DNA of 63,953 nt, the filler included. It is 4 parts of 4 records of this genome, joined end to end, with 100 filler letters (N's around TTAATTAATTAA, not from the genome) between each part and the next. Parts side by side here need not be neighbours in the genome. Positions count along the whole stretch, not along the records: positions 12,967 to 32,159 come from SRR31156797_7287; 3 more parts are not named here. One strand, 5' to 3'. The notes under the pieces were generated by a model that saw nothing but the letters and a program-made list of their open reading frames with translations, did not search any database and was not told the origin of the DNA. The position numbers were made by a program, and so were the translations under genes. Positions 12,867 through 30,718 of the stretch are shown here, piece by piece (position 1 is the stretch's first letter; the number at the start of each line of letters is the position of its first letter).

Positions 12867-12966
12867 NNNNNNNNNNNNNNNNNNNNNNNNNNNNNNNNNN
12901 NNNNNNNNNNTTAATTAATTAANNNNNNNNNNNNNNNNNNNNNNNNNNNNNNNNNNNNNNNNNNNN
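12867..12966. other. Artificial contig-joining spacer
   Basis: N44-TTAATTAATTAA-N44 (stops in all six frames); gene style changes across it. Confidence 0.97.
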
Positions 12967-13734
12967 ACCCTGGACAATAAAGACAGAATTAAAGAACTGA
13001 TTTCCCAGCTTAACAGATTTTCACTCGAAATGATGGATGATCAGGAGCCTTGGGTAGGATACCGCTATTACATGGATTTTTATAGTGGCTCTGAGGAGAT
13101 TACTAGAATAACTATTCTGGGCAAGGACCTTGTTAATGTCGATGGTGTTTATTATGAGGTTGATAACTCATCCGTAGATATAGAAGCAATTGAGAGAATT
13201 ATTGGATCTTCGTCAAACTCGGAATTAGCTTCCGGTAATGAAGGTTTGAACATAGAAGTTTCAGGGGTATCAGAATCTCTAAGTATTGAAGAATTAAACT
13301 CTCAAGCAGATATCATTGTTACTGGAACTGTCACAGGTGTTTTTCCCTCTAGGTGGAATACACCTGATGGAAAAAGACCGAATAAATCAGATAGTGAACT
13401 GAACATAGGAACCGAAGACATGATTTACACCAGTGTTGTAATTCACGTAAATAGATACATTAAAAATGCACTGGACTGTCAGGACTTACAGATAACTGTT
13501 GAGGGAGGTATTGTGGGTGAAGATTCCATATGGGTTGAAGATAGTCCTTCATTTGAATACGTTGAAAATGTTCTTCTTTTCCTGAACTGGACTCCGGGGA
13601 GGAAGAGAATGACTGTTACTGGTGAATATCAGGGTAAATTCACAATGATAAACGATACAGCAGCAGTAAGGACTGATGGGGAGTCTGCGGTTATTGTTGA
13701 AGAGAATGGTGATTGGGTAGTAACAAGCATGTGA
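12967..13734 (+). CDS. Hypothetical acidic protein, probably extracellular, 5'-truncated
   Basis: Frame of the 13030 ORF is open back to the contig start (TLDNKDRIKELIS...); C-terminal domain LSIEEL..QADIIVTGTV...EGG...VLLFL. Confidence 0.7.
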   Translation, partial: TLDNKDRIKELISQLNRFSLEMMDDQEPWVGYRYYMDFYSGSEEITRITILGKDLVNVDGVYYEVDNSSVDIEAIERIIGSSSNSELASGNEGLNIEVSGVSESLSIEELNSQADIIVTGTVTGVFPSRWNTPDGKRPNKSDSELNIGTEDMIYTSVVIHVNRYIKNALDCQDLQITVEGGIVGEDSIWVEDSPSFEYVENVLLFLNWTPGRKRMTVTGEYQGKFTMINDTAAVRTDGESAVIVEENGDWVVTSM

Positions 13735-14142
13735 GAACTTTAAAAAACTTATTTTTTCTCCTATAATTTGGGCATTTTTCAGGCTCAATATTGAGGTTAA
13801 GTGTGCTTAATTTAGGCTTCTATAATCTTTGTTGAAACAATGTGCAATCTTCTAGTAGTTGTTTGTTGGTAGGGTGCTATCCATTTGTTTCAATTAACTG
13901 CTTCATATGATATGATGTTACTCAAATGAAAGTCCTCACTCTTAAAACAGTTAAGCAAAAGGCCATAATGTTTATATAAGCAACTAATAATTTTACATTC
14001 GCACATATGATATATGAAAGGAGTCCAATCTATTTTATAGAGTAGCCTTGGACTCCTTGATGCCCAGAGGCAATGGTATGTTGGTTTGATTCGGCTTAAA
14101 ACTTGCGTGTCTTTGTTTTTGGAATAATAAAAGAGGTATAAA

Positions 14143-15195
14143 ATGAAAACAAAACTACTTTTTGGATTGCTAGTAATAGCGTTCATGATAGGAATAGCAA
14201 GTGCAGACAATGGGATGGAAATTTCAAAGCTTTCTGATTACAGCCCTGAACAATTTCAAGAGCTTTTAAAATAACCGAATGTGATCGATATTAGAGGCTC
14301 AATGCCAGAGTTGATTTTTGAAAATGATAAGCAAAAATGGTTTGATAATATCAATAAATCTGGATCAGCCGTTTTCTCTTCGGGTGAATTGAAACCATAT
14401 ATGGAACAAAATGGCGGACCGATTATAATGACAGGTTACACATCTGATGGATGTTTGGTAGTTTCATTTAATGAAGAGTTAAAAGGAACATTTGATGAAA
14501 ACAAGTATATCAATGATATTTACAAGATATATGAAGATAAATCAAAAAAACTGGGTGTTAAAGACATTCCTATTGTATTTGAATATGAATCTATCCCAGT
14601 TGTACAGTCACGGACGTCCTATTGGAGGCCCTTAATAGGTGGAATCAAAATTGCTGTTGTGGGTTCATCAACTCTTGGATTTGCTGGAGAAAAGGTTCAC
14701 AATGGTGATAAGGGTTATATAATGACTGGACATTCCGGAGTACCCGGAAATACAGTAAAACAGCCAACAACATCTTCTGTGGGGACAATCATTGATGTAG
14801 AAGGAACTTATGCCGATGCTGCTTGGGTAAAATATAGTAATGTGGATGCAAAAGTATATCATACAAACGTTGATGTGACAAAAAGTGTGAAAGATTATGG
14901 CAATCCATCTGTGGACGATGACATCTTTATGTCTGGAAAAAGATCGGGGCTAGAAGATGGGGAGGCAGTTGCATATGTATACTCAATATCAAACCCCTAT
15001 CATGGGACACTTTATGGCCAGTGGAGGGCTAACTATGATTCGGATAATGGAGATAGTGGTGCTCCTGTGTATGAAACTGTCACCGGAGGTGTAAAGATCG
15101 TTGGTATTCATTGGGGCGCTTCAAACCTTTATGCATATTTCTCACCAGTTGGAGGTATTCAAGCAGATCTCGGTGTTGTGCCTTTAACGGAATAA
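14143..15195 (+). pseudogene. Secreted S1 (chymotrypsin/alpha-lytic-type) serine protease with one in-frame TAA at 14272-14274
   Basis: GAGG RBS and ATG 14143 give signal peptide MKTKLLFGLLVIAFMIGIASA, in frame with ORF 14281; triad His (TGH, 14731), Asp (DAAWV, 14815), Ser (GDSG, 15055). Confidence 0.85.
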
Positions 15196-15260
15196 AATAG
15201 ACAGTCCGTCTATTTTATTTTTTTATATTTTGGACAGGATTCAAAATAATTGCAAGGGAG

Positions 15261-16508
15261 ATGAATAGCATAATGTGTAAATTTAATAATTCCTTTCTAC
15301 TGACTTTAACCATCACATTTCTCGTATTTCTGTCACACGCTAGTGCTGATGGTGCCAATTCTGAAAATGAGACTGTAATCGAATTATTAATAGAAAACCT
15401 GTCTAATCAAAATCTATCGATAAAGTCAAGTTCTGCAAAAAACCTTGCTGAAATAGGGGAACCTACTGTAGTTCCTCTTATTCAGGCATTGGATAGTAAT
15501 AATTCAGAAATTAGGGAAAATTCGGCATATGTTCTTGGCCAAATAGGAGACGAACGAGCAGTAGATCCTCTGATTGAATTGTTGGGAGATGACTCTCAAA
15601 GAGTTCATAAAGCTGCGTCATCAGCACTTGAAAACATAGGTGAAGCCGCATTAGAATCACTCGTAAAAACAGTGAGTGAAGAAAACGAAAGTTCTCCCAG
15701 CCGATTAAATGCTATACGGATTCTTGGAACGATGGGTGAACCTGCAGTTGAGCCGTTGATTCAGGCGCTTGGAGGTATAGATGGTGTAACTGCAGCCTCT
15801 TCTTTGGGCAATATTGGTGAGCCAGCTGTATTACCACTGATTGATACTTTGGATAATGATGATCCATTGGTAAGAGCGTATGCTTCAAAAGCTCTCGGGA
15901 AAATAGGGGATAAAAGAGCTGTAGAACCAATAATCATGTTGCTTGAAGATAAAGATTCAAATGTCAGGGCAAATGCTGCTAAGGCTCTTGGTAATATAGG
16001 AGATGAAAGAGCAATTGAACCTCTTACAAAAACGCTTAGTGATAATGATGAAAGAGTAAGTGTTCTTGCAGAGTCAGCACTTGAAAAGATTGAAGCTAAT
16101 GATAATTCGGGCATAATTGCAACCTACGGAAAAAAAAGAGAATTTCTGATTGAGGATGAGTGGCAAAAATGGATTGATGAACTTGACAATATCGGAAATG
16201 GTGCGAGAAGTGACATGGAATCCTATATTAATCCCAATGGTCCTGTGACATCCTACGGGTATAATCGTGATGGTTATATTTCAGTCACTTTTTTGGAAGG
16301 CTCGGAGATTAATGAGTCTATGATGGATGAAATCTATAGTATATTTGTTGAACATGCTATAGAGGATGGAATTAGTGATGTTCCTGTGATTTTTCAATCT
16401 GAAGGTATGATTTCAGTAGATATCGAAGAAGATGAAGCAAATTTTCAAACTCCAGGTTTTACAGTCGCTGTTCTTATAATGATACTATTGATATATATCA
16501 AATTATGA
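15261..16508 (+). CDS. Surface HEAT (PBS-lyase-type) repeat protein with propeptide-like domain and PGF-CTERM anchor
   Basis: Signal peptide (ends HASA); repeated LG.IGD.RAVEPL/IGEPAV.PLI units; C-terminus TPGF plus hydrophobic helix and KL. Confidence 0.88.
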
Positions 16509-16772
16509 TAACTTTTAGCGTATAAATTGCGGAAAAGATAATGAAATAGTAGTAGGATATCATGAGAATACAAGTGTCAGTACGTGTTGACTCACATGTT
16601 CCTAATTGATAGCCTATTTAAACCTTATTTTTCTGTTTTCCCGTTTTTCAAAATCACCCTGCACCACTCCACATAACTTCAAACATCTTTGAAGTTTAAG
16701 CAAAGTATATACAGTCATACTCCCAAAGTCAGTATTAAGAAACACAATACTCTCAGTCAGGAGTGGTTAAAA

Positions 16773-19700
16773 GTGAACTTAACAGGGAAAAAAACAGGCA
16801 CTTTCATAGTTATTGTATCGTTGTTTGCAGTCATAATATCGGGTTGTATCGGGGATGATGGTGAGCTTTCATCCAATCTCGCCGGTCCTTGCAGTGGCCA
16901 GCTTTCTTCATCAGGAGACGAATTCCTGATACTTGCACCGAAGATGCTCTTTTCAGGCGGGGAGAGCTCAGTGACCATGGCAGCTTTTTCTGATAATGAG
17001 CCGGTGACTCGATGTGTGGAATATACTCTCACAGATGAGAACGACAATGAGATTGATCTTGTGCAGGCATCAACCTCTGAAGAAGGCAATGTTGTAGCTT
17101 CCTTTGAAGTACCAGATGTTGAAGAGGGAACCTATACTCTCACCGCAAAACCATCAGGGTATGAAACAGAATTCGAGGCAACGGTGGAAGTGGTAAAAAA
17201 CAATCCACTGTTTATCGAGACAGACAAGCCCATCTACAAGCCAGGTCAGACAATACACGGAAGAATTCTCTCCCTGAACAACAATCTTATTCCTGTTCAG
17301 GAAAACATCACCGCTGAGATAACAGATGCAAAAGGAATCAAAGTCTTCAAGGAGGAAATAAACTCCAACGAATATGGTGTTGCTTCCTTTGACCTGCCCC
17401 TGGCATCTGAACTGAACATGGGTACATGGAAGGTTGTTGCAACAGCAGGTGATTCAAGCACCAATGTAGATATTCAGGTTGACAAATATGTGCTTCCGAA
17501 GTTTGATGTTTCACTGGAAACACCGCAGGAATGGCTCCTTGTATCCGATGAGATAACAGGTACGGTGTCTGCCAATTACTTCTTTGGCAAGGAAGTTGAA
17601 GGTGATGTGCTTGTTGAAGCCTCACGCTACGTGGGAGAGTGGGAACAGTATGCAACTTTCTCCGGCGCACTTGAGAACGGTTCCATAGAGTTTGAACTCC
17701 CTGAAGTAGAATACGCAGCCGGTACATACGGAGCAGGCGGACAGGCAAGTCTCATGCTTAACGTTACTGTCACAGACACAGGTAACCACACTGAAAGCAC
17801 AAACAAGTTGCTTACTATTGCTGAATCACCAATTGTTCTCCAGCTAATTCCTGAATCAAGTACCATCAAGCCGGGAATGCCTCTACAGGTACTTGTTGTT
17901 ACAAAGGATCCCGGAGGCAATCCTGTTGATGCTGAAGTAACAGTAGACGCAAGGATAAGTGACGATTCTTATGATTCCACAAATGAAGAATTCACCTTGA
18001 ACACAGAGGGGGGTGTTGCCTTGCTTGAGCTGGAAATTCCGGCTAACAGCACAAATCTGTATATGGATGCTTATGTAGAGGGTGACAATGCATGGGCCAG
18101 TGAGTCACTGAATGCTGTATACTCTCCAAGTGCAAGTTTCATTCACATTTCCCAGACAAGCGATGGTGTGCCGGAACTTGGTGACACCATTTCCTTCCAT
18201 GTTTACTCCACAAATCCAGGTACGGTGTATTACGATGTCTTCGCAAACGGCAGGACGGTTTATTCTGCTACCAGTGATGAAAGTGACATAAGCATACCTG
18301 TAACTCCACAAATGAGTCCGCAGGCAAAGGTTGTTGCTTATATAATAAATCCCAACAGTGAAGTATCAGTGGACGTACTTCCATTCGATGTGGAATTCTC
18401 CACCCAGGTGGACCTGTCCAGTTCATTCAGCAGTGAGGGGGCAGAACCCGGGGATGATGTCGCAGTTGATTTTGACGCTGGAAGCCAGTCCATGATAGGT
18501 TTCTCCATCGTGGATGAATCTGTCTATGCACTTAGTGAGGGACGGCTTAATCTTAAGCAGGTATTCGATGAACTGGAGAAACGTTTCATGGAGCCTATGG
18601 CAGAATCCCATCCTTACTGGTATGAAGAAGGTGCATATGATGCACTGGAGAATGCCGGAATGGTAGTGATGGCCTCTCCGGGAATTGAGGTGCCACGTTC
18701 TGAATTGGCTGAATCAGGATTTAATGCTGGCAAATTTGCAGGTTTTGGTATGGAAGTTGATGCAGCTATGGATGACATGGTAGTCCTGGAAGGTGAGGAA
18801 ATGATGGAGATGCCTGCAATGGCCGCAGAACCTACTGATTCGGCAGATGAGGGCATGGGAGAGAGCGGCGAACTTGCAGAAGTGCAGCGTGTGCGTCAGT
18901 TCTTCCCTGAGACATGGGTATGGATGCCTGAGCTTCTCACTGATGAGGCAGGTCTTGTAAGTCTTGACCTGACAGCACCTGACAGTATCACTACATGGAG
19001 ACTGCACGCGGTCTCCTCCGGTCCGGAAGGTATCGGTATATCTGAATCCAGCCTGACGGTGTTTCAGGACTTCTTTGTTGACCCTGACCTGCCATACGCA
19101 GTTACAAGGGGTGAACAGTTCCCTGTACAGGTGCAGGTCTACAACTATCTAGATACAGAGCAGGATGTAAAACTGACACTATCAGGTGCTGAATGGTTTG
19201 ACATAATTGGTGACGATGTGCAGACCGTGACCGTGGATGGGAATGGTGTGGGATATGCTAGTTTCACAATAAGTCCAACCAAGGTTGGAAAGCAGCTTCT
19301 TGAGATAACCGGGCAGACAACTGAGAGGGCAGACGCTGTCAGGAAGGATATCATCGTGGAAGCAGAGGGAGCTACCCGTGAGCTTGTTGACAATGGTGTG
19401 CTCAGTAATGGTTCCGTGGAACTTGATACAAGTCTGCCAGCAGACATTGTTTCTGATTCGGACAAAGTACTTGTGAGCTTCACCCCGAGCATTGTGGCGC
19501 AGAGCATAAGTGGAGTAGACGACCTGCTTGGCATGCCTTATGGGTGTGGTGAACAGAACATGATGCTCTTCTCAACCGATGTTGAGGTATTGCGCTACCT
19601 GAAGGCAACAGGGCAGGATAATCCAGAAGTGCGGGCAAAAGCCGAGATGTATATTATCACAGGTTACCAGCGTGAATTGACCTACCGCCACAGCGATGGT

Positions 19701-21011
19701 TCATTCTCAGCATTCGGAGAGAGTGATGAGAGTGGTAGTCTCTGGCTTACTTCATTCGTGCTGTCCCAGTTCAGTGCTGCAAGGGATGTGACCACAATTG
19801 ATGAGAACATTCTCTCCGAGTCTGCGGATTGGATAGAATCCCATCAGCAGGAGGATGGTTCATGGGAGCAGGTCGGTTTTGTGATCCATCAGGACATGAT
19901 GGGCGGTGTCAGCGGCACCTACGCACTCACAGCATACACAACCCTTGCACTGGATGAATATGGTTCTGCAAGTCCTGTTGTCATGGCAAACGCACAGAAG
20001 TACCTTGAGGATAATCTTGCAGCCCAGGATGACCCATATGCTCTTGCCATCGGTACCCTTGCGCTGCAGAAACTCGACAGTTCCATGGCCGATGAGGCAC
20101 TGAACGACCTGCTTGCAATCTCAAAGCAGGATGATGACGGCACCTACTGGGGATATGGTGACGGTGCAGTTCCATTGCCGTACGAGGATGTTGGATACAG
20201 TTACATGGCACCATCCAGTAAGAACGTGGAGACAACAGCATATGCAACCCTTGCACTTATCGAAGCAAAGAATCCCACAGCCATCTCCTCCTTGAAGTGG
20301 ATATCCGCACAGCGCAATTCCAACGGAGGATTCTCCAGTACCCAGGATACTGTAATGGCATTCAGGGCACTGATGAGCGCGGCAGCATCTGCTGGCAGGG
20401 ATATCGATGCAACGGTACATGTAATCGCTGACGGAACTGAGATCAGGTCGGTGGATGTCAACCAGCAGAACTTCGATGTTGTCCAGATAATCGAGATCCC
20501 TGAAGGGACATCCAATGTCACTCTTGAGATGGATGGGACAGGAGACCTGAACTACCAGCTTGTAAGGCGCTTCAATGTGATCCTGCCGGATGTCATTGAG
20601 TACAATGAGATAGAACTGGATGTGGATTATGATTCCACCGACGTTGCTGTGAATGATATCGTCACTGTGAATGCCACGGTGAAGTACAACGGTATCCGGG
20701 GAATTGACGGCAGTGTCAGTTCCAGTGGAATGATGATAGTCGACCTTGCGGTGCCAACCGGTTTCAGTCCTGTATCCTCAAGTCTCGAGGCTGTGAAGGC
20801 AAACGAGGATAAGATTACCCGCTATGAGATCGCAGGCAGAAAGGTCATATTCTATATTGACGACATGCAGCCTGATGAGGTACTTGAGTTCAGCATGCAG
20901 GTGCAGGCTCTGTTCCCTGTGAAGGCTGTGGTGTCTGAGAGCAAGGCTTACTCGTACTACAACCCCGAGGTTGTGGCTGAGGTGAAGGGAATGGATGTTA
21001 CTGTGGTTTGA
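16773..21011 (+). CDS. Alpha-2-macroglobulin/thioester-containing protein (TEP), predicted lipoprotein
   Basis: GGAG-type RBS before GTG 16773; lipobox-like IISGC; FIETDKPIYKPGQ, YVLPKFDV, FFPETWVW, PDSITTW, PYGCGEQNM (thioester 19542-19556), DGSFSAFG, GGFSSTQDT, YSYYNPE. Confidence 0.95.
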   Translation: MNLTGKKTGTFIVIVSLFAVIISGCIGDDGELSSNLAGPCSGQLSSSGDEFLILAPKMLFSGGESSVTMAAFSDNEPVTRCVEYTLTDENDNEIDLVQASTSEEGNVVASFEVPDVEEGTYTLTAKPSGYETEFEATVEVVKNNPLFIETDKPIYKPGQTIHGRILSLNNNLIPVQENITAEITDAKGIKVFKEEINSNEYGVASFDLPLASELNMGTWKVVATAGDSSTNVDIQVDKYVLPKFDVSLETPQEWLLVSDEITGTVSANYFFGKEVEGDVLVEASRYVGEWEQYATFSGALENGSIEFELPEVEYAAGTYGAGGQASLMLNVTVTDTGNHTESTNKLLTIAESPIVLQLIPESSTIKPGMPLQVLVVTKDPGGNPVDAEVTVDARISDDSYDSTNEEFTLNTEGGVALLELEIPANSTNLYMDAYVEGDNAWASESLNAVYSPSASFIHISQTSDGVPELGDTISFHVYSTNPGTVYYDVFANGRTVYSATSDESDISIPVTPQMSPQAKVVAYIINPNSEVSVDVLPFDVEFSTQVDLSSSFSSEGAEPGDDVAVDFDAGSQSMIGFSIVDESVYALSEGRLNLKQVFDELEKRFMEPMAESHPYWYEEGAYDALENAGMVVMASPGIEVPRSELAESGFNAGKFAGFGMEVDAAMDDMVVLEGEEMMEMPAMAAEPTDSADEGMGESGELAEVQRVRQFFPETWVWMPELLTDEAGLVSLDLTAPDSITTWRLHAVSSGPEGIGISESSLTVFQDFFVDPDLPYAVTRGEQFPVQVQVYNYLDTEQDVKLTLSGAEWFDIIGDDVQTVTVDGNGVGYASFTISPTKVGKQLLEITGQTTERADAVRKDIIVEAEGATRELVDNGVLSNGSVELDTSLPADIVSDSDKVLVSFTPSIVAQSISGVDDLLGMPYGCGEQNMMLFSTDVEVLRYLKATGQDNPEVRAKAEMYIITGYQRELTYRHSDGSFSAFGESDESGSLWLTSFVLSQFSAARDVTTIDENILSESADWIESHQQEDGSWEQVGFVIHQDMMGGVSGTYALTAYTTLALDEYGSASPVVMANAQKYLEDNLAAQDDPYALAIGTLALQKLDSSMADEALNDLLAISKQDDDGTYWGYGDGAVPLPYEDVGYSYMAPSSKNVETTAYATLALIEAKNPTAISSLKWISAQRNSNGGFSSTQDTVMAFRALMSAAASAGRDIDATVHVIADGTEIRSVDVNQQNFDVVQIIEIPEGTSNVTLEMDGTGDLNYQLVRRFNVILPDVIEYNEIELDVDYDSTDVAVNDIVTVNATVKYNGIRGIDGSVSSSGMMIVDLAVPTGFSPVSSSLEAVKANEDKITRYEIAGRKVIFYIDDMQPDEVLEFSMQVQALFPVKAVVSESKAYSYYNPEVVAEVKGMDVTVV

Positions 21012-21111
21012 AGGAATAAAGGAAGGGGTGATTTCTCTTCCTTCTGTCTATTTAAATATAGATTAATTGTATATTCTATAACTATAATTTCATTTTAAAG
21101 GATCAGATCAA

Positions 21112-21708
21112 ATGGACTTCAGACTAATTTTCATTATGGGATTTGCAGGTTTTGTTGTTACAGTTATCCTGCTGGCAATTGTTGCTACAATTCTTAATGA
21201 GAAACGCAGAGCAAAAAACCTTGCAGAACAGGCACGAGAAATAGGATTTAATCCAGCTTCAAAGGATCTTGTCACATCACTTGATTTTAAGCAGACTCGG
21301 CTTGGTAACAAACAAAAAGTGTACAATGTTTTCACAGGTACTTTTGATGGTGTTCAGGTAATCTTTTTTGACCTGACAATAGTTATTGGAAATTTGATAA
21401 CCGGTTCTACAACATCTCACGGAGGTACTTTCAAGTCATCAGTTATCGTCTTCAAAGTACACGCTCCCATTTTTGAATCACAGCCTCGCTCTCCTCTTAC
21501 TAAAAATGCTTATAACGAATACTTCTCCCTGAAAGGAGATGCTTCTTTTATGACTGAATCACTGGCCGAGAAAATTGAACGAAAATATGCAATTGAGTCC
21601 AATGGGACTCATGTATTGTTTGTCCCTTCCGGGAAACGTGTTGGAAACATCAGTGATAAAGTAAAGGCTGCTTACGGGATATTGCAGGAAATAGTTCAGA
21701 AACATTAA
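21112..21708 (+). CDS. Hypothetical protein with N-terminal membrane anchor
   Basis: 198-aa ORF with hydrophobic N-terminal helix and AAGGA upstream. Confidence 0.7.
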   Translation: MDFRLIFIMGFAGFVVTVILLAIVATILNEKRRAKNLAEQAREIGFNPASKDLVTSLDFKQTRLGNKQKVYNVFTGTFDGVQVIFFDLTIVIGNLITGSTTSHGGTFKSSVIVFKVHAPIFESQPRSPLTKNAYNEYFSLKGDASFMTESLAEKIERKYAIESNGTHVLFVPSGKRVGNISDKVKAAYGILQEIVQKH

Positions 21709-21758
21709 GTACTTATTTCAGTCAAATCCAGATAGTATCAATTAAAAGGGGATTTCAA

Positions 21759-22142
21759 ATGAACAAATATCTGAAAATGTTCTTTTACGGACTTGTTCTG
21801 TGGCTGGTGCCTTTTGTAGTCAGCTTTGCCTTTGTGGACAGTCAGGGCAATTTCATCATAGCTGAGACATTCTTCAAATCCATCATGGTTGTTACCGGTG
21901 CTCTTATTGGTGTTATCCTTGCAGTGAGGTATTTCAGGGATGTAGAAACGGACTATGTCAATGAAGGCATACTTCTTGGACTTATCTGGCTTGTCATGAA
22001 CCTTGCGCTGGACCTGGTAATGGTATCAGGTGGATTCTTCCAGATGTCGGTTGTGCAGTACTTCACAGACATCGGAATGCGCTATCTTGCAATGCCGATC
22101 TATACTGTAGGTATGGGCTATGTATTGATGCAGAAGGGATAA
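21759..22142 (+). CDS. Small integral membrane protein (about 4 TM)
   Basis: 127-aa hydrophobic ORF with AGGGG RBS. Confidence 0.75.
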   Translation: MNKYLKMFFYGLVLWLVPFVVSFAFVDSQGNFIIAETFFKSIMVVTGALIGVILAVRYFRDVETDYVNEGILLGLIWLVMNLALDLVMVSGGFFQMSVVQYFTDIGMRYLAMPIYTVGMGYVLMQKG

Positions 22143-22214
22143 TCATCTATCCTGTCTACATTACAAGAACTGAAATAAATTATCTTTATCTTTTTTAGGA
22201 GCAATGGAGCAACT

Positions 22215-22895
22215 ATGGCAGTGCAGTACCAGAACGTAGTCCCCTGGGGGCGTTCATTTCAGGAATATGTTGGCATGTTCGATCTGAGTGAAATCGACCT
22301 TGATAGTTCCATCCTCGGATGTGGTGATGGTCCTGCAAGTTTTAACTGTGAGATGACTCGACAGGGCAAGTCTGTCGTATCTGTTGACCCAATCTATTCT
22401 CTTAGCAGAGCTGCCATTGGGAAACGGGTCGATGAGACCTATCTTGAGGTGCTTGAGCAGACCCGGGAGAATCAGGATAAGTTCGTCTGGGAGAACATTT
22501 CCTCGGTGGAGGAACTGGGGCAAATTCGCATGGATTCCATGAAACTATTCCTTGAGGATTTTGAGAATGGCAAAGAGGAAGGTCGCTATGTTGCAGGTGG
22601 ACTACCGGAACTGCCATTTGAGGACAATTCCTTTTATCTTGTTCTGGTATCACATCTTCTGTTCCTGTATTCAGAGCAGCTTTCCTTCGACTTCCATATT
22701 CAGGCTGCTGATGAACTGCTCAGGATAGCGGATGAGGTGAGAATATTTCCGTTGGTCGACCTTAATTCAAGAAAGTCGATACATCTTGATGAGGTCATTG
22801 ATTATTTGATGGCGCGTGGGTTCGATGTTTCCGAGAAGAAAGTGGACTATGAGTTCCAGAAGGGTGGGAATACAATGCTGGTGATAAGGGGATAG
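22215..22895 (+). CDS. Class I SAM-dependent methyltransferase-like protein
   Basis: ILGCGDGPASF motif I variant, VSVDP, LPFEDNSF.LVLVSHLLF; GGAG RBS. Confidence 0.8.
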   Translation: MAVQYQNVVPWGRSFQEYVGMFDLSEIDLDSSILGCGDGPASFNCEMTRQGKSVVSVDPIYSLSRAAIGKRVDETYLEVLEQTRENQDKFVWENISSVEELGQIRMDSMKLFLEDFENGKEEGRYVAGGLPELPFEDNSFYLVLVSHLLFLYSEQLSFDFHIQAADELLRIADEVRIFPLVDLNSRKSIHLDEVIDYLMARGFDVSEKKVDYEFQKGGNTMLVIRG

Positions 22896-22940
22896 TTTTG
22901 TTTTTGATATTCTGGCAAAAACCAAAATAGATGGTCCGGG

Positions 22941-23429
22941 TTAACCGTTATCCGCTTCCACTCTTGTTAATACACTCAGTGTTACAGCATTCTCTTCTGC
23001 TATCGCACCTTCGATGCGATCTACCAGAAGTCGGAATGCACCGTCCTTATCAAGTTTGGAATAATCTCCAATTCTATGAACAAAAAGTTGCTTTTGGGTT
23101 TCCAGGTATTGTTCTGTTGAACGGTAGTTCTTCCACTGTTCTCTATAATGGTATATCCCTTCCAAGGCAATAGCTAGGGCCACTGCAACACCGATGAAAG
23201 TAACTGAGGACCTTGCAAGGTCCATTTCCCAGTCTCCGATCGGTACAATTACAGAAACATTGTTGATCACAGGAATCAGCACTGCACCTACTGCAGCTAT
23301 TACCTGTGCTTGCTGATATCTCTTTTTCATTTTAACAGATTTGCTGTCGTACCATGATCTGTATTGTTCAAGCCTGTTTTTGATGTATTGTTCCTCAGTA
23401 TTTTGAACCTCGGTTATTTCATCAGCCAT
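22941..23429 (-). CDS. DUF4231 / SLATT-type two-TM protein
   Basis: YI..RL.QY.SWYD.KS...KK.Y, two TM helices, W.NYRST.Q.L..QK.LF...G.Y; true start MADEITE at 23429 because the longer ORF overlaps mutS. Confidence 0.8.
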   Translation of the reverse strand: MADEITEVQNTEEQYIKNRLEQYRSWYDSKSVKMKKRYQQAQVIAAVGAVLIPVINNVSVIVPIGDWEMDLARSSVTFIGVAVALAIALEGIYHYREQWKNYRSTEQYLETQKQLFVHRIGDYSKLDKDGAFRLLVDRIEGAIAEENAVTLSVLTRVEADNG

Positions 23430-23542
23430 CAATAGAATTTTGGATTGGAAGTACTTAAATAATACGTTAGACGAATCGATGATTTTGTCACATTGGGAAA
23501 TGATATTTATCTCTGATATTTTTCTTGATAGTTTCCTTCCCG

Positions 23543-23577
23543 ATGCAAACACAAAAATACTAACAAGCCGATAATTT
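23543..23577 (+). repeat. Direct repeat copy 1, upstream of mutS
   Basis: ATGCAAACACAAAAATACTAACAAGC (26 bp) identical to 27554-27579; 33/35 identity when extended. Confidence 0.9.
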
Positions 23578-23603
23578 GCAGCATCAATTCTGTGTGATCC
23601 ATC

Positions 23604-26252
23604 ATGAGTAAAGTAACCCCTGCCATGCAACAGTTTTATGCTGCCAAGGAAGAGCATAAGGATGCCCTCATATTCTTCAGGATGGGGGATTTCTATGAGT
23701 CCTTTGGAGAAGATGCAAAGACCATAGCAAAAGAACTTGAGATCACCCTGACGACCCGCGGCAAAGGAAAGGATGGAGAGAAGATGCCGCTTGCAGGTAT
23801 CCCGTATCATGCTATCGATAACTATCTCCCGCGTCTCATCAAGAAGGGCTACAAGGTTGCCATATGTGAGCAGCTCGAGGACCCAAAGAAGGCAAAAGGT
23901 GTCGTGAAGCGTGGTGTTGTAAGGGTTGTGACTCCGGGTACTGCAATGGATTCATCCATGTTCTCAGACTCATCTAATAATTACCTCATGGCATTGTATG
24001 GTGAGAAGGATGAATATGGCCTGTCGTTTTTGGATATCTCTACCGGTGAGTTCCTGACAACACAGTTTAAGGATACTACTCCCTATGACCGTATCGCCAG
24101 TGAGGTTGCACGTATGGGTCCTTCCGAATGCATTCTGCCTCCTTCTTTGTTCAATGACCTGCGCCTTACTGAGCGTCTGAAGGAACTCAGGCTAATCATT
24201 CACGAGTTCGATGAAGATGCTTTTGATCTGGAACTGGCTGAGAAAATCCTTCTGGAGCACTTTAATGTATCTACCCTTGAAGGTATGGGTTGCAGTGAAC
24301 TAATGGTTGCTGTCTCATCTGCAGGTGCAGCATTGCGTTATGCAACAGAGACTCAGATGAGGGAACTCTCTCAGGTACAGAACCTGAAGACATACTTCGA
24401 TTCCGAGTTCATGGTGCTGGATGCTATCACCCTGAGAAACCTTGAGATCGTCAGAAATGTGAGGGGTGAAGGAAACGATTCTTCTCTTATCGGTGTGCTT
24501 GATGAGACAAAGACGCCCATGGGGAGGAGACAATTACAGAAATGGCTCCTGAAACCTCTGGTATCCGTTGATGCCATCAATGCTCGTCTCGATTCAGTTG
24601 CATGGCTTCATGATAACACTCTCATACGTTTTGATATCCGTGCTCATCTTTCATATGTAAAAGATATGGAGAGGCTTGTTGGAAGGGTAATGTATGGAAA
24701 TTCTAATGCAAGGGATCTTGTATCGTTGAAGAAATCACTTGAATCAGTTCCACTCTTGCTCGGATCTCTTCGGGAATGTGGGAATGTTGATCTGCTGGAG
24801 GGCCTCGTATCAAAATTATCCTCTTTCGGGGAACTCGATGAGCTTTCAAAGCTTATCGACAGTGCCATAGTGGAAGAACCTCCTCTTAGTGTCCGGGATG
24901 GAGGAATGATCAAAACTGGATATAATGCGCAACTGGATGAATTCTTTGATCTGTCAAAAAATGGAAAACAATGGATCGCCAAGTTCCAGCAAAAAGAGCG
25001 TGACAGGACCGGGATAAAGTCTTTGAAGGTCGGTTATAACAAGGTTTTTGGTTATTATCTTGAGGTCACAAAGGCAAACATATCACAGGTTCCTGATGAC
25101 TATATCAGGAAGCAGACCATGACAAATGCCGAAAGGTTCTATACTCCTGAACTTAAAGAACGTGAGAGTGCTATCCTTTCCGCAGATGAGAAAATGGTGG
25201 CTCTTGAACATGAGCTGCTCAGTGAGCTAAATTCGATTGTAGCCTCCCATTCCAGACAGCTTCAGGAAACTGCCGTTCTTATTGGAACACTGGATGTTCT
25301 GACAAACCTTGCAGAGGTAGCTGCCAATAACAATTATGTACGACCGGCAGTAACTCCTGATTGCAGACTTCTCCTCAGAGATGGACGACACCCCGTAGTT
25401 GAGGATGCTGTCCCCGGTGGCTTTGTGCCCAATGATACGGAGATGGATTGTAGTGAGAATCAATTCCAGCTTATAACCGGGCCCAACATGGCTGGTAAAT
25501 CCACATACATGAGGCAGATTGCTATGATAGTTATAATGGCGCAGGCAGGTTCCTTTGTACCTGCATCCCATGCATCTATTGGTATTGTGGACCGGGTGTT
25601 CACAAGGGTCGGCGCATTTGATGATCTTGCAAGCGGCCAGAGTACTTTCATGGTGGAAATGGTGGAGCTTGCCAATATCCTGAACAATGCCACACCAAAG
25701 AGTCTGGTGTTGCTGGATGAGATTGGCAGGGGTACCAGTACCTATGATGGTTACAGTATTGCGAAAGCTGTGGTTGAATACATCCACAACAAGAGGCGTG
25801 TGGGCGTCAGGTCTCTTTTCGCCACGCACTATCATCAACTCACCGATATCGCAGCCAATCTCAAGCGTGTGAGGAACTATCATATCGCTGTTAAGGAGGA
25901 TGGGGATGACCTTGTATTCCTGCGTAAGATCGTTCCCGGTGCAACGGACAGGAGCTATGGTATCCATGTTGCCAGAATCGCGGGTGTCCCGCACACGGTC
26001 ACTTCAAGGGCAAAGGAGATCCTTGAGGATATCGAGAGCGAGTGCATGATAAGTGGGGAAGACCGCAAGGGGAGTAAGAAACAGCGCAGCAGCGCCAATT
26101 ATACTCAGGTCATATTGTTCGACCAGGATGCAACTTATAGTGAGGTAGTTCCTGACCCTGTGATAGAAGAACTGAAAGAACTGGATATCAATTCAATGAC
26201 CCCTATCGAGGCGCTGAACAAGCTGAATGATATCAAAAGTAAACTCAAATAG
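23604..26252 (+). CDS. mutS: DNA mismatch repair protein MutS (MutS1)
   Basis: TPAMQQF, FRMGDFYE, GPNMAGKS, STFMVEM, DEIGRGT, FATHYH, SYGIHVA. Confidence 0.98.
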   Translation: MSKVTPAMQQFYAAKEEHKDALIFFRMGDFYESFGEDAKTIAKELEITLTTRGKGKDGEKMPLAGIPYHAIDNYLPRLIKKGYKVAICEQLEDPKKAKGVVKRGVVRVVTPGTAMDSSMFSDSSNNYLMALYGEKDEYGLSFLDISTGEFLTTQFKDTTPYDRIASEVARMGPSECILPPSLFNDLRLTERLKELRLIIHEFDEDAFDLELAEKILLEHFNVSTLEGMGCSELMVAVSSAGAALRYATETQMRELSQVQNLKTYFDSEFMVLDAITLRNLEIVRNVRGEGNDSSLIGVLDETKTPMGRRQLQKWLLKPLVSVDAINARLDSVAWLHDNTLIRFDIRAHLSYVKDMERLVGRVMYGNSNARDLVSLKKSLESVPLLLGSLRECGNVDLLEGLVSKLSSFGELDELSKLIDSAIVEEPPLSVRDGGMIKTGYNAQLDEFFDLSKNGKQWIAKFQQKERDRTGIKSLKVGYNKVFGYYLEVTKANISQVPDDYIRKQTMTNAERFYTPELKERESAILSADEKMVALEHELLSELNSIVASHSRQLQETAVLIGTLDVLTNLAEVAANNNYVRPAVTPDCRLLLRDGRHPVVEDAVPGGFVPNDTEMDCSENQFQLITGPNMAGKSTYMRQIAMIVIMAQAGSFVPASHASIGIVDRVFTRVGAFDDLASGQSTFMVEMVELANILNNATPKSLVLLDEIGRGTSTYDGYSIAKAVVEYIHNKRRVGVRSLFATHYHQLTDIAANLKRVRNYHIAVKEDGDDLVFLRKIVPGATDRSYGIHVARIAGVPHTVTSRAKEILEDIESECMISGEDRKGSKKQRSSANYTQVILFDQDATYSEVVPDPVIEELKELDINSMTPIEALNKLNDIKSKLK

Positions 26253-26287
26253 GTGCTTCTGGATCATTTATTTTCTGTGAAGGTAAT

Positions 26288-27478
26288 TCATTGCAGGTCC
26301 CCGGAACCAATGCCTTTTCTCTGTAATATTGTCCATGCGGTCAGCACAAGAGCACCGCAGACAAATGTGATGGTTCCCAGTATCTGCATACGTTCCATCC
26401 ATTCAAGTGATACCAGCCACATTCCAACAGCCCCAAGGGTGAAATATGTGAATATCAGCAGGGATGACGCGGCACCTGCATCCTTATGCACCTGTTCGAG
26501 TACGAGGTGATTGCTGGGAGGTCTGCTGATGCCTATGGAAAACGTTACAATTGCCATTGGTATTGCAAAGCTCCAGGGTCCGTTCTGGCCTATCAAAAGA
26601 ATGGCTGCTGCTCCAAGTGTTATTCCTGCAAAACCGGCGGTCATCAGATGGTTGGAGTTCATCCTGTCCGTCAGTTTCAGGCATGACATGGACCCTGCCA
26701 TAAGTGCAAGGGCGTTGAAGGCGAAGAAGTAGCTGAAACCCTGTTCTGTCATTCCGAATCCGTTGATGTAAAGTGCCGAGGAACTGGCAATGAAGCTGTA
26801 CAGGGGTAGCAGGCTTACGGACATCACAAGAACCATTATCACATAGTTCTTGTTAAGTAGAAGCTCAGCATAGGAATTCATGACCTTTGACATTGGGACG
26901 TCCGATTTTTCCTTTAGTGTCTCAGGTGTCCTGACCACTCCCAGAAGTCCTATAAGTCCCATCGCTCCCTGCGCAATGAAGATCCAGGGCCATGTTATAT
27001 ATGCCAGTATCCATCCGCCGACAATAGGTGCGAACATAGGTGCAAGTGCCATGATCACGGCTATATATGCAAGGATTCTCTGTCTTTCTTTCCCGGCGAA
27101 TATATCCTTTGTCATGGTCATGGAAAGGGATGCGCTGGCAGCAGCCCCGGCAGCCTGTATTATTCGGAATACTATAAGTGCGGTCACATTGCTGGCGGTT
27201 GCACAGAGTATGCTGGCAAGTATGTAGAGTATGATGCCTGCGATCAACGGTTTTTTGCGTCCGTATCTGTCCGATACCGGTCCGTAAAAAAGTAATGAGA
27301 ATCCATATGTGACGAAGAAACTGATCAGTATAAGGTTGACAACTGCCAGTGGCCTGTCCCATAGAATAGCAAGGGATGGTATGGCAGGCAGTATCATGTC
27401 CGTGGAAAATGCAGGGAATGCTGTTAAAAGGGCTAACAAGGGTACGATATTCTTTATTTTTCCAGAACCTGACATCAT
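26288..27478 (-). CDS. MFS multidrug transporter (Bcr/CflA family)
   Basis: TDMILPAIP, GPVSDRYGRK motif A, APIVGG; about 12 hydrophobic segments. Confidence 0.9.
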   Translation of the reverse strand: MMSGSGKIKNIVPLLALLTAFPAFSTDMILPAIPSLAILWDRPLAVVNLILISFFVTYGFSLLFYGPVSDRYGRKKPLIAGIILYILASILCATASNVTALIVFRIIQAAGAAASASLSMTMTKDIFAGKERQRILAYIAVIMALAPMFAPIVGGWILAYITWPWIFIAQGAMGLIGLLGVVRTPETLKEKSDVPMSKVMNSYAELLLNKNYVIMVLVMSVSLLPLYSFIASSSALYINGFGMTEQGFSYFFAFNALALMAGSMSCLKLTDRMNSNHLMTAGFAGITLGAAAILLIGQNGPWSFAIPMAIVTFSIGISRPPSNHLVLEQVHKDAGAASSLLIFTYFTLGAVGMWLVSLEWMERMQILGTITFVCGALVLTAWTILQRKGIGSGDLQ

Positions 27479-27553
27479 GAACCTTCTAATTTTATGTTGC
27501 CTCTAACGGTACGACCGGATATAATTATTTTGGAAATCTGATGTTCCTTTGGA

Positions 27554-27588
27554 ATGCAAACACAAAAATACTAACAAGCAGATATTTT
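27554..27588 (+). repeat. Direct repeat copy 2, upstream of mutL
   Basis: Same 26-bp string as 23543-23568. Confidence 0.9.
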
Positions 27589-27642
27589 CGTCTTAAAGGG
27601 TTAGAGTTCATAAATATACTTATCGTGGACAGGAAGTGAAAT

Positions 27643-29664
27643 ATGACTGATAAAGCATGTGATATCAAAGGTTCCAGAATAAGATTGCTGGATGAGTCCA
27701 CTATCAACAAAATAGCAGCAGGAGAGGTTATTGAACGCCCTGCTTCTGTGGTCAAGGAATTGATTGAGAATTCAATTGATGCCCATGCCACTGATGTTCG
27801 AGTGGAAATAGGGGGGTATGGCACGAAAAGCATGCTAATTGCTGACAATGGTGTTGGAATGAGTCATACTGATGCTTCCCTTGCATTCAAGAAGCATGCC
27901 ACCAGCAAGATAAGCACCATAGAGGACCTTGACAGCATACTTACAATGGGATTCAGGGGTGAGGCTCTGGCATCCATAGCCTCTGTGGCGAAAGTTGAAC
28001 TTGTCACCAGGCAGGAGGGCGAGTTGGAAGGTACGAAGGTAGTAGTTGACAGCAGTGGTATAAGGAATATCACTTCTGCAGGAACTGCCGTGGGAACCAG
28101 CATACTTGTTCAGGACCTGTTCTACACCACGCCTGCCAGAAAGAAGTATCTCAAGAGCGCAAGGACGGAGATTGCTCACATAGTCGATGTGGTTACCAGG
28201 AACTGCCTGGCCCATCCTGATGTCTCGTTCACTCTTATCATAGATGGAAAAGTAACATTGAGGTCACCTGCCTCTGTTAAGATGCTTGACAGCATCGTCC
28301 ATCTTTATGGCGCTGACGTTGCACGTTCCCTTGTTCCGCTGGAATATGAGTCAGAGCTCATCACGATTTCAGGCTATATCTCAAAACCCGAACTGACAAG
28401 GAGCGGAAAGGACCTGCAGGTATTCCTGATAAATGGAAGGCCGATCTTCTCAAAACAGCTAAGTAATGCTGTTAGGCTTGGTTATTATACTCTTCTTCCA
28501 AAAGGACGTTATCCGGCAGCCTTCCTGAATTTCGCTATCAATCCTATGAATGTTGATGTGAATGTTCATCCTGCTAAAAGGGAAGTTAGACTGAGTCACG
28601 AGAAAGAGATCAGTGTCATGATTGTATCAGCTGTAGAGAAAGCCCTTGCTGGAGATTCACTTGTCCCTGAAGTGCAGTTGGCGAAAAAAGATACTCCTGT
28701 CCAGTCGCAGTTGTATGTTCGTGAACCTGAAAGGTCCTCTTCAGATCAACCGAAATCTTACAAAGCAGCGGGGTCAGTAGACCTGCCAGAGCCAACAGAA
28801 GTTCCAGAGTCTGTAGGATCAGGTAGTGACGAGTCATCTGCGTCACATGAACCTATTTCCTCAACTTCATCTTCCTATGGTGACACGGATGTTATTAATT
28901 CTGAATCGCCTGCTCCCATCATAATTCCTGATAGGCCACCGAATGCGATATCAAGGAAGAATGTGATCAAAGAGGAAAAAGAACCTTATCATTATCCTGC
29001 AAAAGACACCCAACGTCGTCTGAAGAAAAGTGAACGACTTCAGATGAGTGTGACTTCAGATAATGTGGAGGAACTTGATGCAACTTTTAGTCCCTCGGAT
29101 GTGAATGTATATGGACAATACGGCGATCTTTATATAATATGCGAGATGGATGGCAAGCTTATACTGATCGACCAGCATGCTGCCCACGAGCGCATAATGT
29201 ATGAGCAGGTGCTCAGGATGAAAGACCTGGGGTGGCAGGAACTCATCACTCCTGTGACGCTGGACCTGAGCCAGAAAGAGATGGCTATCATTGAAGAGTT
29301 CATCCCGCAACTGGAGGAGATGGGATTTTCTGTTTCCGAGTTCGGTCCAAAAAGCTATGTTGTCACCACGGTTCCGAGCATCTTCGGAAAGCTTGAGGAT
29401 ACTGATGTTATCCATGATATCATCTCTGACCTGCTGTCCGTTGGAAGGGTGAAGGAAGATACTGAAAGGTATGATCTGCTTTGCAGTACCATGGCATGCA
29501 GGGCTGCTATAAAGGCAGGAGCGGTGTGTAATACTTCACAGATGCAGGAACTCATACGTCAGTTGATGGAATGCAAGAATCCGTACACCTGTCCACACGG
29601 TCGTCCCACTATGATTTCTTTCACAATGGATGAGCTGGCAAAGCTCTTTAAGAGGACCGGATAG
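27643..29664 (+). CDS. mutL: DNA mismatch repair endonuclease MutL
   Basis: IAAGEVIERPASVVKELIENSIDA, GFRGEALASI, DVNVHPAKREV, DQHAAHERIMYE, ACR, CPHGRP. Confidence 0.98.
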   Translation: MTDKACDIKGSRIRLLDESTINKIAAGEVIERPASVVKELIENSIDAHATDVRVEIGGYGTKSMLIADNGVGMSHTDASLAFKKHATSKISTIEDLDSILTMGFRGEALASIASVAKVELVTRQEGELEGTKVVVDSSGIRNITSAGTAVGTSILVQDLFYTTPARKKYLKSARTEIAHIVDVVTRNCLAHPDVSFTLIIDGKVTLRSPASVKMLDSIVHLYGADVARSLVPLEYESELITISGYISKPELTRSGKDLQVFLINGRPIFSKQLSNAVRLGYYTLLPKGRYPAAFLNFAINPMNVDVNVHPAKREVRLSHEKEISVMIVSAVEKALAGDSLVPEVQLAKKDTPVQSQLYVREPERSSSDQPKSYKAAGSVDLPEPTEVPESVGSGSDESSASHEPISSTSSSYGDTDVINSESPAPIIIPDRPPNAISRKNVIKEEKEPYHYPAKDTQRRLKKSERLQMSVTSDNVEELDATFSPSDVNVYGQYGDLYIICEMDGKLILIDQHAAHERIMYEQVLRMKDLGWQELITPVTLDLSQKEMAIIEEFIPQLEEMGFSVSEFGPKSYVVTTVPSIFGKLEDTDVIHDIISDLLSVGRVKEDTERYDLLCSTMACRAAIKAGAVCNTSQMQELIRQLMECKNPYTCPHGRPTMISFTMDELAKLFKRTG

Positions 29665-29705
29665 AGTCGGTAGATTTTAAAAGTATTAATTACAATTGAC
29701 CTGAG

Positions 29706-30716
29706 ATGATCGACCCGGTAAATAAATCCAAGATCCCAGAAGAATGGCTGGATCGCTCTAAAATGCCACGTGAAGAGCTTATGGAAGGTATAAAGAACGG
29801 AACTCTTGTAGTTCTGAGTGACGGTTCTGTACTAAAGAGAGGATACACTACCGGGACCACTGCGGCACTGGCTGCAAAGGCAGCGGTTCTTTCCATTGCA
29901 GACGAGGTGACGCATGTATCTGTGCCAACTCCTGTAGGGCTTCGTGCCGAATCGGATGTGAAAGGCAGTAAAGGACATGCTGTTGCAGTGAAGGTCAATA
30001 ACGATCACGAATCTGATATTACAAGAGGTCTCGAGTTTGTTGCAGATGCCAAGGAGACTGAAGGTATCACTATCTATGCAGGTGAGGGAATAGGTATCGT
30101 AACCCGCAGCGGCCTGGAGTCCAAGAAAGGCCACCCTGCTATCAATCCTGGACCAATGGGTCAGATCGAAGCATCCATTCAGGAAGCTGTGGATGAGCTT
30201 GGCCTGAGAGGTGCCGAGGTAACGATCTATCTTCCAAAGGGAAAAGAGATTGCAAAACAGACCCTGAACAGCCGTATCGGTATCATAGATGGTATTTCCA
30301 TTCTTGGCAGTACCGGATTTGTGGAGCCATGGAACGACCATCTGGGTGAGATGAAAGGCGATCTTATAAGACATTCCGACAAGGTGGTACTCACCACCGG
30401 CAGGGTAGGTATTCGTTATTCAACCATGCTTTTCCCTGATCATACTGTTGTTCTTGCAGGAAGTCGTATCTCCGAGGCTCTGGATTCAGCACATGGTGAT
30501 GTTGTAATCTGTGGACTTCCTGGTCTTGTACTAAAATGGGGTAATCCTGATATGTTGAAGGACAGCGGTTATGCAACTGTTGTTGAGATGCTGGATCTTG
30601 ACCCTGAGAACGACCGCCTGAAACAGGCATTCAACATGGCTGTGAAAAAGGGCAATGGTGCCCGTATCGTTGTTGTTGACAGGGACGGTACTGTCCTGAT
30701 GGATAGTGGGGAATAA
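29706..30716 (+). CDS. cbiD: Cobalt-precorrin-5B C1-methyltransferase
   Basis: [43 protein letters not shown]. Confidence 0.92.
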
Positions 30717-30718
30717 CT

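Follow-up and report, generated by a model that had tools for sequence, protein, structure and literature searches.

A secreted S1E protease and an anchored propeptide paralogue beside an archaeal A2M/TEP gene: one surface system or two units?

Introduction

Do three proteins that are predicted to be exported and are encoded side by side in the genome of a methanogenic archaeon form one defence system at the cell surface, or have separate units come to lie next to each other? This question was raised by a stretch of DNA of 63,953 nucleotides (hereafter the window), in which a gene for a secreted serine protease (14143..15195), a gene for a HEAT-repeat protein with a paralogue of the protease propeptide (15261..16508) and an open reading frame for an A2M/TEP protein (16689..21011) follow each other on the plus strand. 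The initial annotation had described them as three consecutive co-oriented genes, and this order was confirmed. The window joins four contigs by three spacers (12867-12966, 32160-32259 and 48263-48362), each consisting of 44 N, a 12-nt linker with stops in all frames and 44 N; the protease, HEAT and A2M genes all lie on the single assembled piece 12967-32159. S1 proteases activate animal complement, and proteins of the A2M/TEP/C3 type are triggered by proteolysis of their bait region and attach covalently through their thioester. Taking both as established, the initial annotation proposed a three-gene 'proto-complement' or antiprotease module.

The protease, the HEAT protein and A2M are not one conserved three-gene system. 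We lean, with slightly better than even confidence, towards two independent units that stand side by side: a cassette of a protease and an anchored propeptide paralogue, and an A2M/TEP lipoprotein gene at its usual locus.

The A2M gene is not linked to the protease in the surveyed genomes

To compare gene neighbourhoods, 151 Methanosarcinaceae genomes were sampled, of which 58 carry A2M and 45 the S1E catalytic domain (profile A5; 32 with a single sequence). A2M was found near none of the protease relatives, neither at 80 genome loci (±10 kb) nor at five metagenome loci, three of which are short (0/85 in total). Similarly, no protease and no HEAT repeats were found within ±7.5 kb of A2M in any of the 58 genomes that have it (0/58 each). 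Both genes are present in 17 of the 151 genomes and were apart in all 17, on different contigs or at distances of ~95 kb or more. Six of these genomes have them on a shared contig, separated by ~95 kb (if the contig is circular), 128, 265, 358, ~420 and ~677 kb; in a seventh they are 1.55 Mb apart, and in the remaining 10 they are on different contigs. This synteny survey contradicts the central claim of the initial annotation.

The nearest complete comparison is M. profundi, whose A2M is 89% identical. Its gene order is orf13030, A2M, orf21112, orf21759, orf22215 and mutS, which is the order of the window without the protease and HEAT genes. A blastn comparison with M. profundi showed homology up to 13725 and again from 16628 onwards, where a 79%-identical block (16628-17284) begins. 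The 145 bp in front of the A2M start are therefore shared by both genomes and belong with A2M. This upstream region (16628..16772, plus strand) is T-rich and conserved with M. profundi; judged by eye, it contains a TATA-like box and, immediately ahead of the GTG start codon, a GGAG. The intervening 13726..16627 form a window-specific segment of 2.9 kb with low GC, made up of its own upstream region, the protease gene and the HEAT gene; M. profundi has no such segment between its orf13030 and A2M genes. Among the 58 neighbourhoods of A2M, mutS lies downstream in 38 and a gene of the orf13030 family upstream in 11, the upstream region being variable otherwise.

The composition of the locus changes at the same place. 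The A2M gene (GC 0.484, GC at third codon positions [GC3] 0.475) resembles mutS (GC 0.465, GC3 0.478), and the outliers in GC3 are the protease (0.279) and the HEAT gene (0.245). The GC rise in front of the TEP gene, on which the initial annotation had remarked, is thus present, but it is a return to the baseline after a low-GC cassette. Horizontal transfer of A2M as the cause of the step was ruled out, because its GC and GC3 match those of mutS and its locus is conserved. Similar 13-nt direct repeats (12 of 13 identical) lie near both edges of the segment (13744-13756 and 16620-16632) and may be a recombination or insertion scar, T-rich terminator-like sequence or chance; beyond them, a search of the segment for mobile-element signatures gave nothing.

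In a single surface defence system, the protease would activate or feed the TEP, the anchored paralogue would regulate the protease and the TEP would attach covalently to its targets. The adjacency and shared orientation of three genes whose products are all predicted to be exported fit such a system, as do the same order in a second sample (X2, see below) and the fact that A2M proteins are triggered by proteases. On synteny it is largely refuted by the lack of linkage elsewhere. Furthermore, the pair of protease and HEAT genes is an indel of foreign composition, and A2M keeps its conserved upstream region behind a gap with T-runs; the length of 264 bp reported earlier for this gap holds with the start codon GTG 16773. 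Finally, the protease is broken in the window genome, and no S1E catalytic domain could be detected in 41 of the 58 A2M-bearing genomes. We consider a single system very improbable.

According to the reading of two units, the first (13726-16627) would be a low-GC two-gene cassette, probably acquired recently, that recurs in Methanosarcinales, anaerobic methanotrophic archaea (ANME) and some other archaea. It would encode a secreted pre-pro S1E protease, followed by a secreted propeptide paralogue anchored through PGF-CTERM and archaeosortase, which is here fused to HEAT repeats. The second would be a vertically inherited A2M/TEP lipoprotein gene with its own upstream region, located upstream of mutS, whose product may act as a membrane-tethered protease trap with bait and thioester.

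The protease is a divergent S1E enzyme with an in-frame stop codon

The protease gene (14143..15195, plus strand) encodes a pre-pro S1E serine protease with a signal peptide (~14143-14205), a propeptide (~14275-14610) and a catalytic domain (~14620-15192). As had been reported, this S1 protease with signal peptide is interrupted. The interruption is a single nonsense codon, an in-frame TAA (codon 44; 14272..14274, plus strand), which splits the signal peptide from the remainder. When the stop was read through as X, the protein aligned end to end with nine intact homologues (332-378 aa) and X fell on a variable position, occupied in the homologues by Lys, Glu, Asn or Asp. In the contig of run X1, the likely source run (depth 44), position 14272 is a T, and in a relative from the independent run X2 (92-98% identical) it is an A, giving AAA for Lys, at a depth of 2 at which single-base differences may be errors. 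Because of this difference and the otherwise intact alignment, the TAA reads as a recent nonsense change that cuts off the export signal and leaves the proenzyme intact in other respects. The window genome would have lost the export signal of its protease in this way and have kept the anchored paralogue intact. Recoding of the stop, by pyrrolysine or otherwise, was considered and rejected, the codon being TAA and not TAG.

Neither Pfam (E up to 1) nor NCBIfam (E up to 0.01) recognised any family in the protease, Trypsin and Trypsin_2 included. A phmmer search of the PDB returned alpha-lytic protease as the best match (E 0.008) and, weakly, the streptogrisins; the motifs TAGHC, DxAWV and GDSG align. 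The AlphaFold2 (AF2) model of a 306-aa fragment (31 sequences; pLDDT 88.3, pTM 0.83) has a beta-alpha-beta-beta-alpha-beta propeptide (residues 1-105), a linker of low confidence (114-124) and a double beta-barrel. Its top Foldseek matches were S. fradiae SFase, alpha-lytic protease, Lysobacter L1/L5, SGPA/B, TFPA and NAPase, all of them S1E enzymes (E 5e-11 to 1e-8, TM 0.77-0.81 on the target). The triad H153, D181 and S261 (numbering of the 306-aa fragment) is invariant across the 31 sequences. By its fold matches, the weak phmmer match and the invariant triad, the protein is a divergent S1E enzyme of the alpha-lytic/streptogrisin type with the double beta-barrel chymotrypsin fold. We detected 41 relatives of similar length, the named ones coming from Methanosarcina, Methanolobus, Methanococcoides and Methanophagales. 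A perfect 12-nt inverted repeat with a 5-nt loop (15191..15219, plus strand) spans the stop codon of the protease gene; with the T-rich run behind it, it resembles a terminator.

The HEAT protein carries a propeptide paralogue and a putative anchor

The second gene (15261..16508, plus strand) encodes a secreted protein of 415 aa with a signal peptide and HEAT/PBS-lyase-type repeats at residues ~33-288 (HEAT_2, 2e-40 in Pfam). A propeptide-like domain (16128-16451, plus strand) and a putative PGF-type C-terminal anchor (16452-16505, plus strand) follow. The C-terminal ~100 aa match the propeptide of the protease (26% identity over 156 aa, E 8e-14), in agreement with the earlier description of a HEAT protein with a paralogue of the protease prodomain. 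Its closest relatives are the protease-linked copies of loci L007 and L010 (48-50% identity).

With regard to the PGF-CTERM anchor that had been assigned to this protein, the tail could be seen by eye as QTPGF followed by 15 hydrophobic residues and K-L, but NCBIfam, and hence also its PGF-CTERM model, matched neither the whole protein nor its last 45 aa. The homologous free copies have signal peptides and canonical tails of (T/S)PGF, a hydrophobic stretch and R/K. In addition, archaeosortase A (ArtA, TIGR04125) scored above the cut-off in five of five related genomes. Anchoring of the HEAT protein at the surface is thus a prediction from its tail and from its relatives.

The domain itself matched no family in Pfam (PF02983 included) or NCBIfam. 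A fold model of the isolated domain reached a pLDDT of 84.4, and its look-alikes in the ESM Atlas reached 0.76 only, which is under the usable range. PADLOC gave only generic HEAT matches for the proteins of the locus.

Protease and propeptide paralogue form a conserved pair

With a profile of the propeptide domain built from 38 sequences (A2), one or more free propeptide-like genes were found within 3 kb downstream of the protease and on the same strand at 22 of the 29 loci whose protease carries the propeptide. All five metagenome loci are paired, and so are two further loci with 5′-truncated proteases. HEAT-propeptide fusions follow the protease in a Methanohalophilus metagenome-assembled genome (MAG; two fusions in tandem), in Methanococcoides seepicolus and in a 76%-identical metagenome orthologue (L007, L010 and L165). 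That the protease and HEAT genes belong together, as assumed in the initial annotation, is borne out by this conservation. Among the papers listed by literature searches, none dealt with the pairing of an S1E protease of archaea and an anchored paralogue of its propeptide; the supplements of PMC8416519, which tabulate archaeal A2M neighbourhoods, may list this type of locus.

The domain is more widespread than the enzyme. It was found in 98 of the 151 Methanosarcinaceae genomes versus 45 with the S1E catalytic domain, and at the thresholds used 53 genomes have 'orphan' copies of the domain and no protease. Among 1.84 billion protein representatives the family comprises 465 clusters at 50% identity (E up to 1e-3). 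The best 150 of these 465 clusters divide into 21 with a catalytic domain, all of which lack a PGF tail, and 129 without a catalytic domain; among the latter, a crude pattern picked out a PGF-type tail in 73, and 46 carry two or three tandem copies of the propeptide-like domain. The free paralogues downstream of the protease at five loci (L005, L006, L017, L018 and L168) also have two propeptide-like domains in tandem in one anchored protein, an arrangement that suggests bivalent binding. One contig of 14.7 kb from a Dehalococcoidia MAG (L026) encodes five tandem proteases with this propeptide and one free propeptide-like gene; it represents either a transfer to bacteria or a binning error.

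It could be argued that the free copies are general surface modules, for adhesion or association with the S-layer, that share only their ancestry with the propeptide, and that the pairing is a relic of tandem duplication without any interaction. That free copies far outnumber proteases would fit this explanation, as would the fact that no known fold or function could be assigned to the domain (Pfam, NCBIfam, Foldseek, VIA and ESM Atlas). However, the downstream position and the strand are kept at the 22 paired loci, in several orders, despite identities of 25-50%, and the interface predicted below uses conserved elements and the active site. We regard non-interacting surface modules as quite unlikely.

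The paralogue is predicted to dock like a propeptide

Binding was addressed by predicting the complex of the mature protease (residues 116-306) and the C-terminal domain of the HEAT protein in three runs, together with three controls. The complex scored 0.68 (0.66, 0.69 and 0.68 in the single runs), and the best of the three controls scored 0.00. In the calibration, 51 of 78 solved complexes and 2 of 108 mismatched pairs attained this mark. The runs agreed in at least 94% of the contacts, and the pLDDT of the partner was at least 78. On the side of the protease, the predicted interface comprises residues 153-154, 181 and 256-261, including His153, Asp181 and Ser261, and the hairpin 230-242. 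On the side of the partner, strand 41-47 lies against this hairpin and the tail 92-102 reaches into the active-site region. We take this to be the arrangement of alpha-lytic protease and its pro region in 4PRO. The paralogue thus looks able to dock like the cis-propeptide; the pass does not imply binding itself.

If this docking mode holds, the anchored paralogue would bind the mature protease in the manner of the cis-propeptide, with a beta-strand on the protease hairpin and its C-terminal tail in the active site. It might then hold or inhibit the enzyme at the surface of the producing cell as an immunity-like shield, and possibly also serve as a trans-foldase or a tether. That it is specifically an inhibitor we judge to be somewhat short of an even chance. 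Self-protection against the cell's own protease, which had been raised in the initial annotation, survives as an idea, but with the anchored propeptide paralogue in place of the TEP as the protector. The excess of orphan copies and the order of enzyme first and binder second resemble the layouts of toxin-immunity genes.

The main alternative to an inhibitor is a role as trans-foldase or tether. The anchored paralogue would then be a trans-acting foldase or a docking site that matures the active protease and retains it on the surface, with the HEAT repeats as a scaffold. Pro regions of alpha-lytic protease fold their enzyme in trans, and the title of PDB entry 1boq also points to folding in trans by the pro region. 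Such a role agrees with the predicted docking mode, which matches that of the propeptide, and with the proteases having no anchor of their own (no PGF tail in the 21 protease-bearing clusters mentioned above). On the other hand, the proteases keep their own cis-propeptide (29 loci), so that a second foldase seems redundant. A foldase is also hard to reconcile with the 53 genomes that carry the domain without the protease and with the many free copies that have two or three tandem domains (46/129). We consider it an unlikely explanation of the pair.

Observations that weigh against two independent units

Several observations weigh against our reading of two independent units, the first of which would contain a docking paralogue. 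The pass of the complex prediction may reflect likeness only, since the partner is a paralogue of the cis-propeptide and cousins of true partners passed in 10 of 12 cases in the calibration. The structure of a comparable complex, formed by alpha-lytic protease and its pro region (4PRO), is already solved, and the prediction was made without alignments of our own. Searches with the isolated domain were not discriminating either. Foldseek returned only common alpha/beta sandwiches, with a best E of 0.029 and with 4pro_C at E 0.069 and TM 0.31. In VIA, Z was at most 6.6, and 4hlb ('alpha-lytic protease prodomain-like') stood among ties at Z 5.4. Going by these fold searches, the alpha-lytic pro-region family (PF02983) or any other family may be kin of the domain. 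The pairing is also incomplete: 7 of the 29 loci are unpaired, namely those in Methanoregula/Methanomicrobiales, one in Methanimicrococcus and one on a 1-kb contig.

Moreover, the relative from run X2, 92-98% identical, has the same order of protease, HEAT gene and A2M, and the juxtaposition has therefore persisted in at least a shallow clade. In addition, a propeptide-like gene immediately precedes A2M on the same strand in 3 of the 58 genomes with A2M (G146, G106 and G119), in two tandem copies in G119. These genes lie 170-220 bp from A2M; in each product a signal peptide precedes the domain, and a linker rich in S/T/N and a hydrophobic C-terminal anchor follow. No S1E catalytic domain was detectable in the three genomes. 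By rough arithmetic that ignores relatedness (~222 copies of the domain in ~150 Mb), ~0.04 such placements were expected by chance. A2M is therefore not fully independent of the domain family. The three cases probably share one ancestral arrangement, because L105 and L107 share upstream genes, and the window would be a second juxtaposition event with a different architecture.

These placements raise the possibility of an anti-protease island, in which A2M as a broad trap and anchored propeptide-like proteins as specific binders of S1E enzymes are selected for adjacency independently of any resident protease. The placements upstream of A2M in genomes that have no detectable S1E domain, together with their low chance expectation, argue for it, and the second juxtaposition in the window, with a HEAT paralogue nearest to the protease-linked copies L007 and L010, would be in line with it. 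However, it concerns only 3 of 58 loci, which probably go back to one event, and the region upstream of A2M is variable, with the orf13030 family in 11 of 58 genomes and other genes elsewhere. Genes for surface proteins may also cluster for unrelated reasons, and the inhibitor activity of the domain is putative. We give the island a minor chance as compared with two independent units.

A further scenario extends the analogy to toxins and immunity. S1E proteases could be weapons against the protein surface layers of competing archaea, and the PGF-anchored paralogues encoded downstream could confer immunity. Orphan copies (53/151 genomes) could be kept against the proteases of neighbours, some Methanolobus could gather them beside A2M as an anti-protease island, and the genome of the window could have lost the weapon through the TAA and kept the shield. 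We offer this scenario as a speculation with a low probability.

The A2M/TEP lipoprotein has a complete domain set

The A2M/TEP gene (16773..21011, plus strand) encodes a lipoprotein of 1412 aa when read from GTG 16773, which is most likely the true start; M. profundi A2M has an ATG at the homologous position. All expected Pfam domains scored above their cut-offs: TED (262 bits; TED_complement 8e-78), A2M (98.5), BRD (84), MG2 (82), RBD (A2M_recep, 58.5), MG3 (53) and MG4 (26.4), the RBD match being the C-terminal receptor-binding-type domain. The lipobox Cys25 is encoded at 16845-16847 (plus strand), the bait region covers residues ~631-690 (18663-18842) and the thioester GCGEQ residues 924-928 (19542-19556). 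By eye, the lipobox of this protein reads AVIISGC, and those of two orthologues read SLFSGC and SLLSGC. The lipobox-bearing A2M/TEP with an intact thioester, as originally described, is thereby confirmed.

Among 54 orthologues, the bait stretch (residues 631-690), which is acidic, Met-rich and gapped, is the least conserved part of A2M (identity 0.29-0.48), and the thioester block is the most conserved (0.95). Because the bait stretch is variable and the thioester block is conserved, A2M looks functional. By sequence, its best solved relatives are human A2M (1.9e-126), followed by CD109, A2ML1, C4, TEP1 and C3, and no bacterial chain is among the best 60 of the 71 PDB matches. The closest database protein, with 90% identity, is from Methanolobus sp. 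WCC4. A distant homologue (P0160; 1498 aa, 50% identity) has a dockerin-type domain (PF00404) and PF18884 in its precomputed Pfam list and is possibly an A2M mounted on a cohesin-dockerin scaffold.

The Methanolobus A2M itself has already been described: in the portion of PMC8416519 that concerns it, a protein of M. psychrophilus is named as a homologue of bacterial A2Ms, probably gained by transfer. The same portion places some archaeal A2M genes among surface proteins and endoproteases (PMC8416519).

Relation to known systems

The protease has its closest counterparts in alpha-lytic protease and the streptogrisins of Lysobacter and Streptomyces (S1E), with which it shares the fold (TM 0.77-0.81), the His-Asp-Ser triad and the build of signal peptide, propeptide and protease. 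Unlike these, it is archaeal and escapes Pfam and NCBIfam. The predicted complex also resembles alpha-lytic protease with its pro region in placing the tail of the window paralogue in the active site and a strand on the hairpin. In contrast to that pro region, the window propeptide has ~100 aa and no significant sequence or fold match to it, and the archaeal system differs further in having a second, free, membrane-anchored propeptide copy downstream that is often tandem or fused to HEAT repeats.

Free-standing propeptide-like inhibitors are known as MEROPS families I9 for subtilisins and I29 for papain-type enzymes. As in these families, a stand-alone propeptide paralogue is encoded apart from the enzyme, and copies also occur in genomes without a cognate protease. 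The archaeal copies differ in that they are exported, PGF-anchored by prediction and usually encoded directly downstream of the protease, in that the enzymes are S1E and in that inhibition is putative.

In its MG domains, bait-region domain, TED with CGEQ and C-terminal RBD-type domain, the A2M of the window resembles metazoan A2M/CD109/TEP as well as the lipoprotein A2M of bacteria (ECAM/YfhM of E. coli, with PBP1c). Its bait stretch is hypervariable, and its membrane tether through the lipobox is like that of ECAM; CD109 is lipid-anchored as well. Its best solved relatives by sequence are metazoan (best 60 of 71), and no PBP1c-type neighbour was found near A2M in the 58 neighbourhoods, the conserved neighbours being mutS and genes for small membrane proteins. 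With complement cascades (C3/C4 with S1 convertases) the window has in common that it encodes a protease of the S1 fold as well as a thioester protein. In contrast to complement, the genes for these two are unlinked in all 17 genomes in which both occur, the protease is of the bacterial S1E branch and not of the chymotrypsin/MASP type, and there are no cascade components.

The idea of an archaeal proto-complement thus fails for this locus, and its A2M is of a type described before. What is new is a family of propeptide paralogues with a predicted surface anchor, archaeal in nearly every named instance, whose genes usually stand immediately after that of a divergent S1E protease overlooked by standard hidden Markov model libraries. 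Should these paralogues turn out to bind the protease or inhibit it, they would correspond, in a membrane-anchored and S1E-specific form, to the propeptide-like inhibitors of subtilisins and papain-type enzymes. They would also be a hint that proteases serve in conflict, or call for self-protection, at the surface of archaeal cells.

Neighbouring genes and other pieces of the window

Two other genes recur around A2M. The product of orf13030 (13030-13734) belongs, with genes at L109, L114, L117 and L121, to a 234-aa family that is the commonest upstream neighbour of A2M (11/58 genomes) and often occurs as two or three tandem paralogues. The product of orf21759 (21759-22142) is a small protein of 127 aa that has, by eye, four hydrophobic segments; the gene stands beside A2M in 18 of 58 genomes, Methanococcoides included, and on either side of it, and its product may be a real partner of A2M. 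Pfam and NCBIfam returned no families for orf13030, orf21112 and orf21759.

The genes for a histidine kinase and a polysaccharide deacetylase to the left of 12867 are on another contig, and their neighbourhood with the three-gene locus is not shown by the joined sequence. The last piece of the window (48363-63953) has a GC of 0.56-0.65 as compared to ~0.45 elsewhere and carries genes of bacterial type, for LacI and LysR regulators, TRAP DctM/DctP, an ABC sugar-binding protein, an amidase and a B12-radical SAM enzyme. Its DctM protein was not found in five close Methanolobus genomes, and the piece is probably a foreign contig that was binned with the archaeon, otherwise an island.

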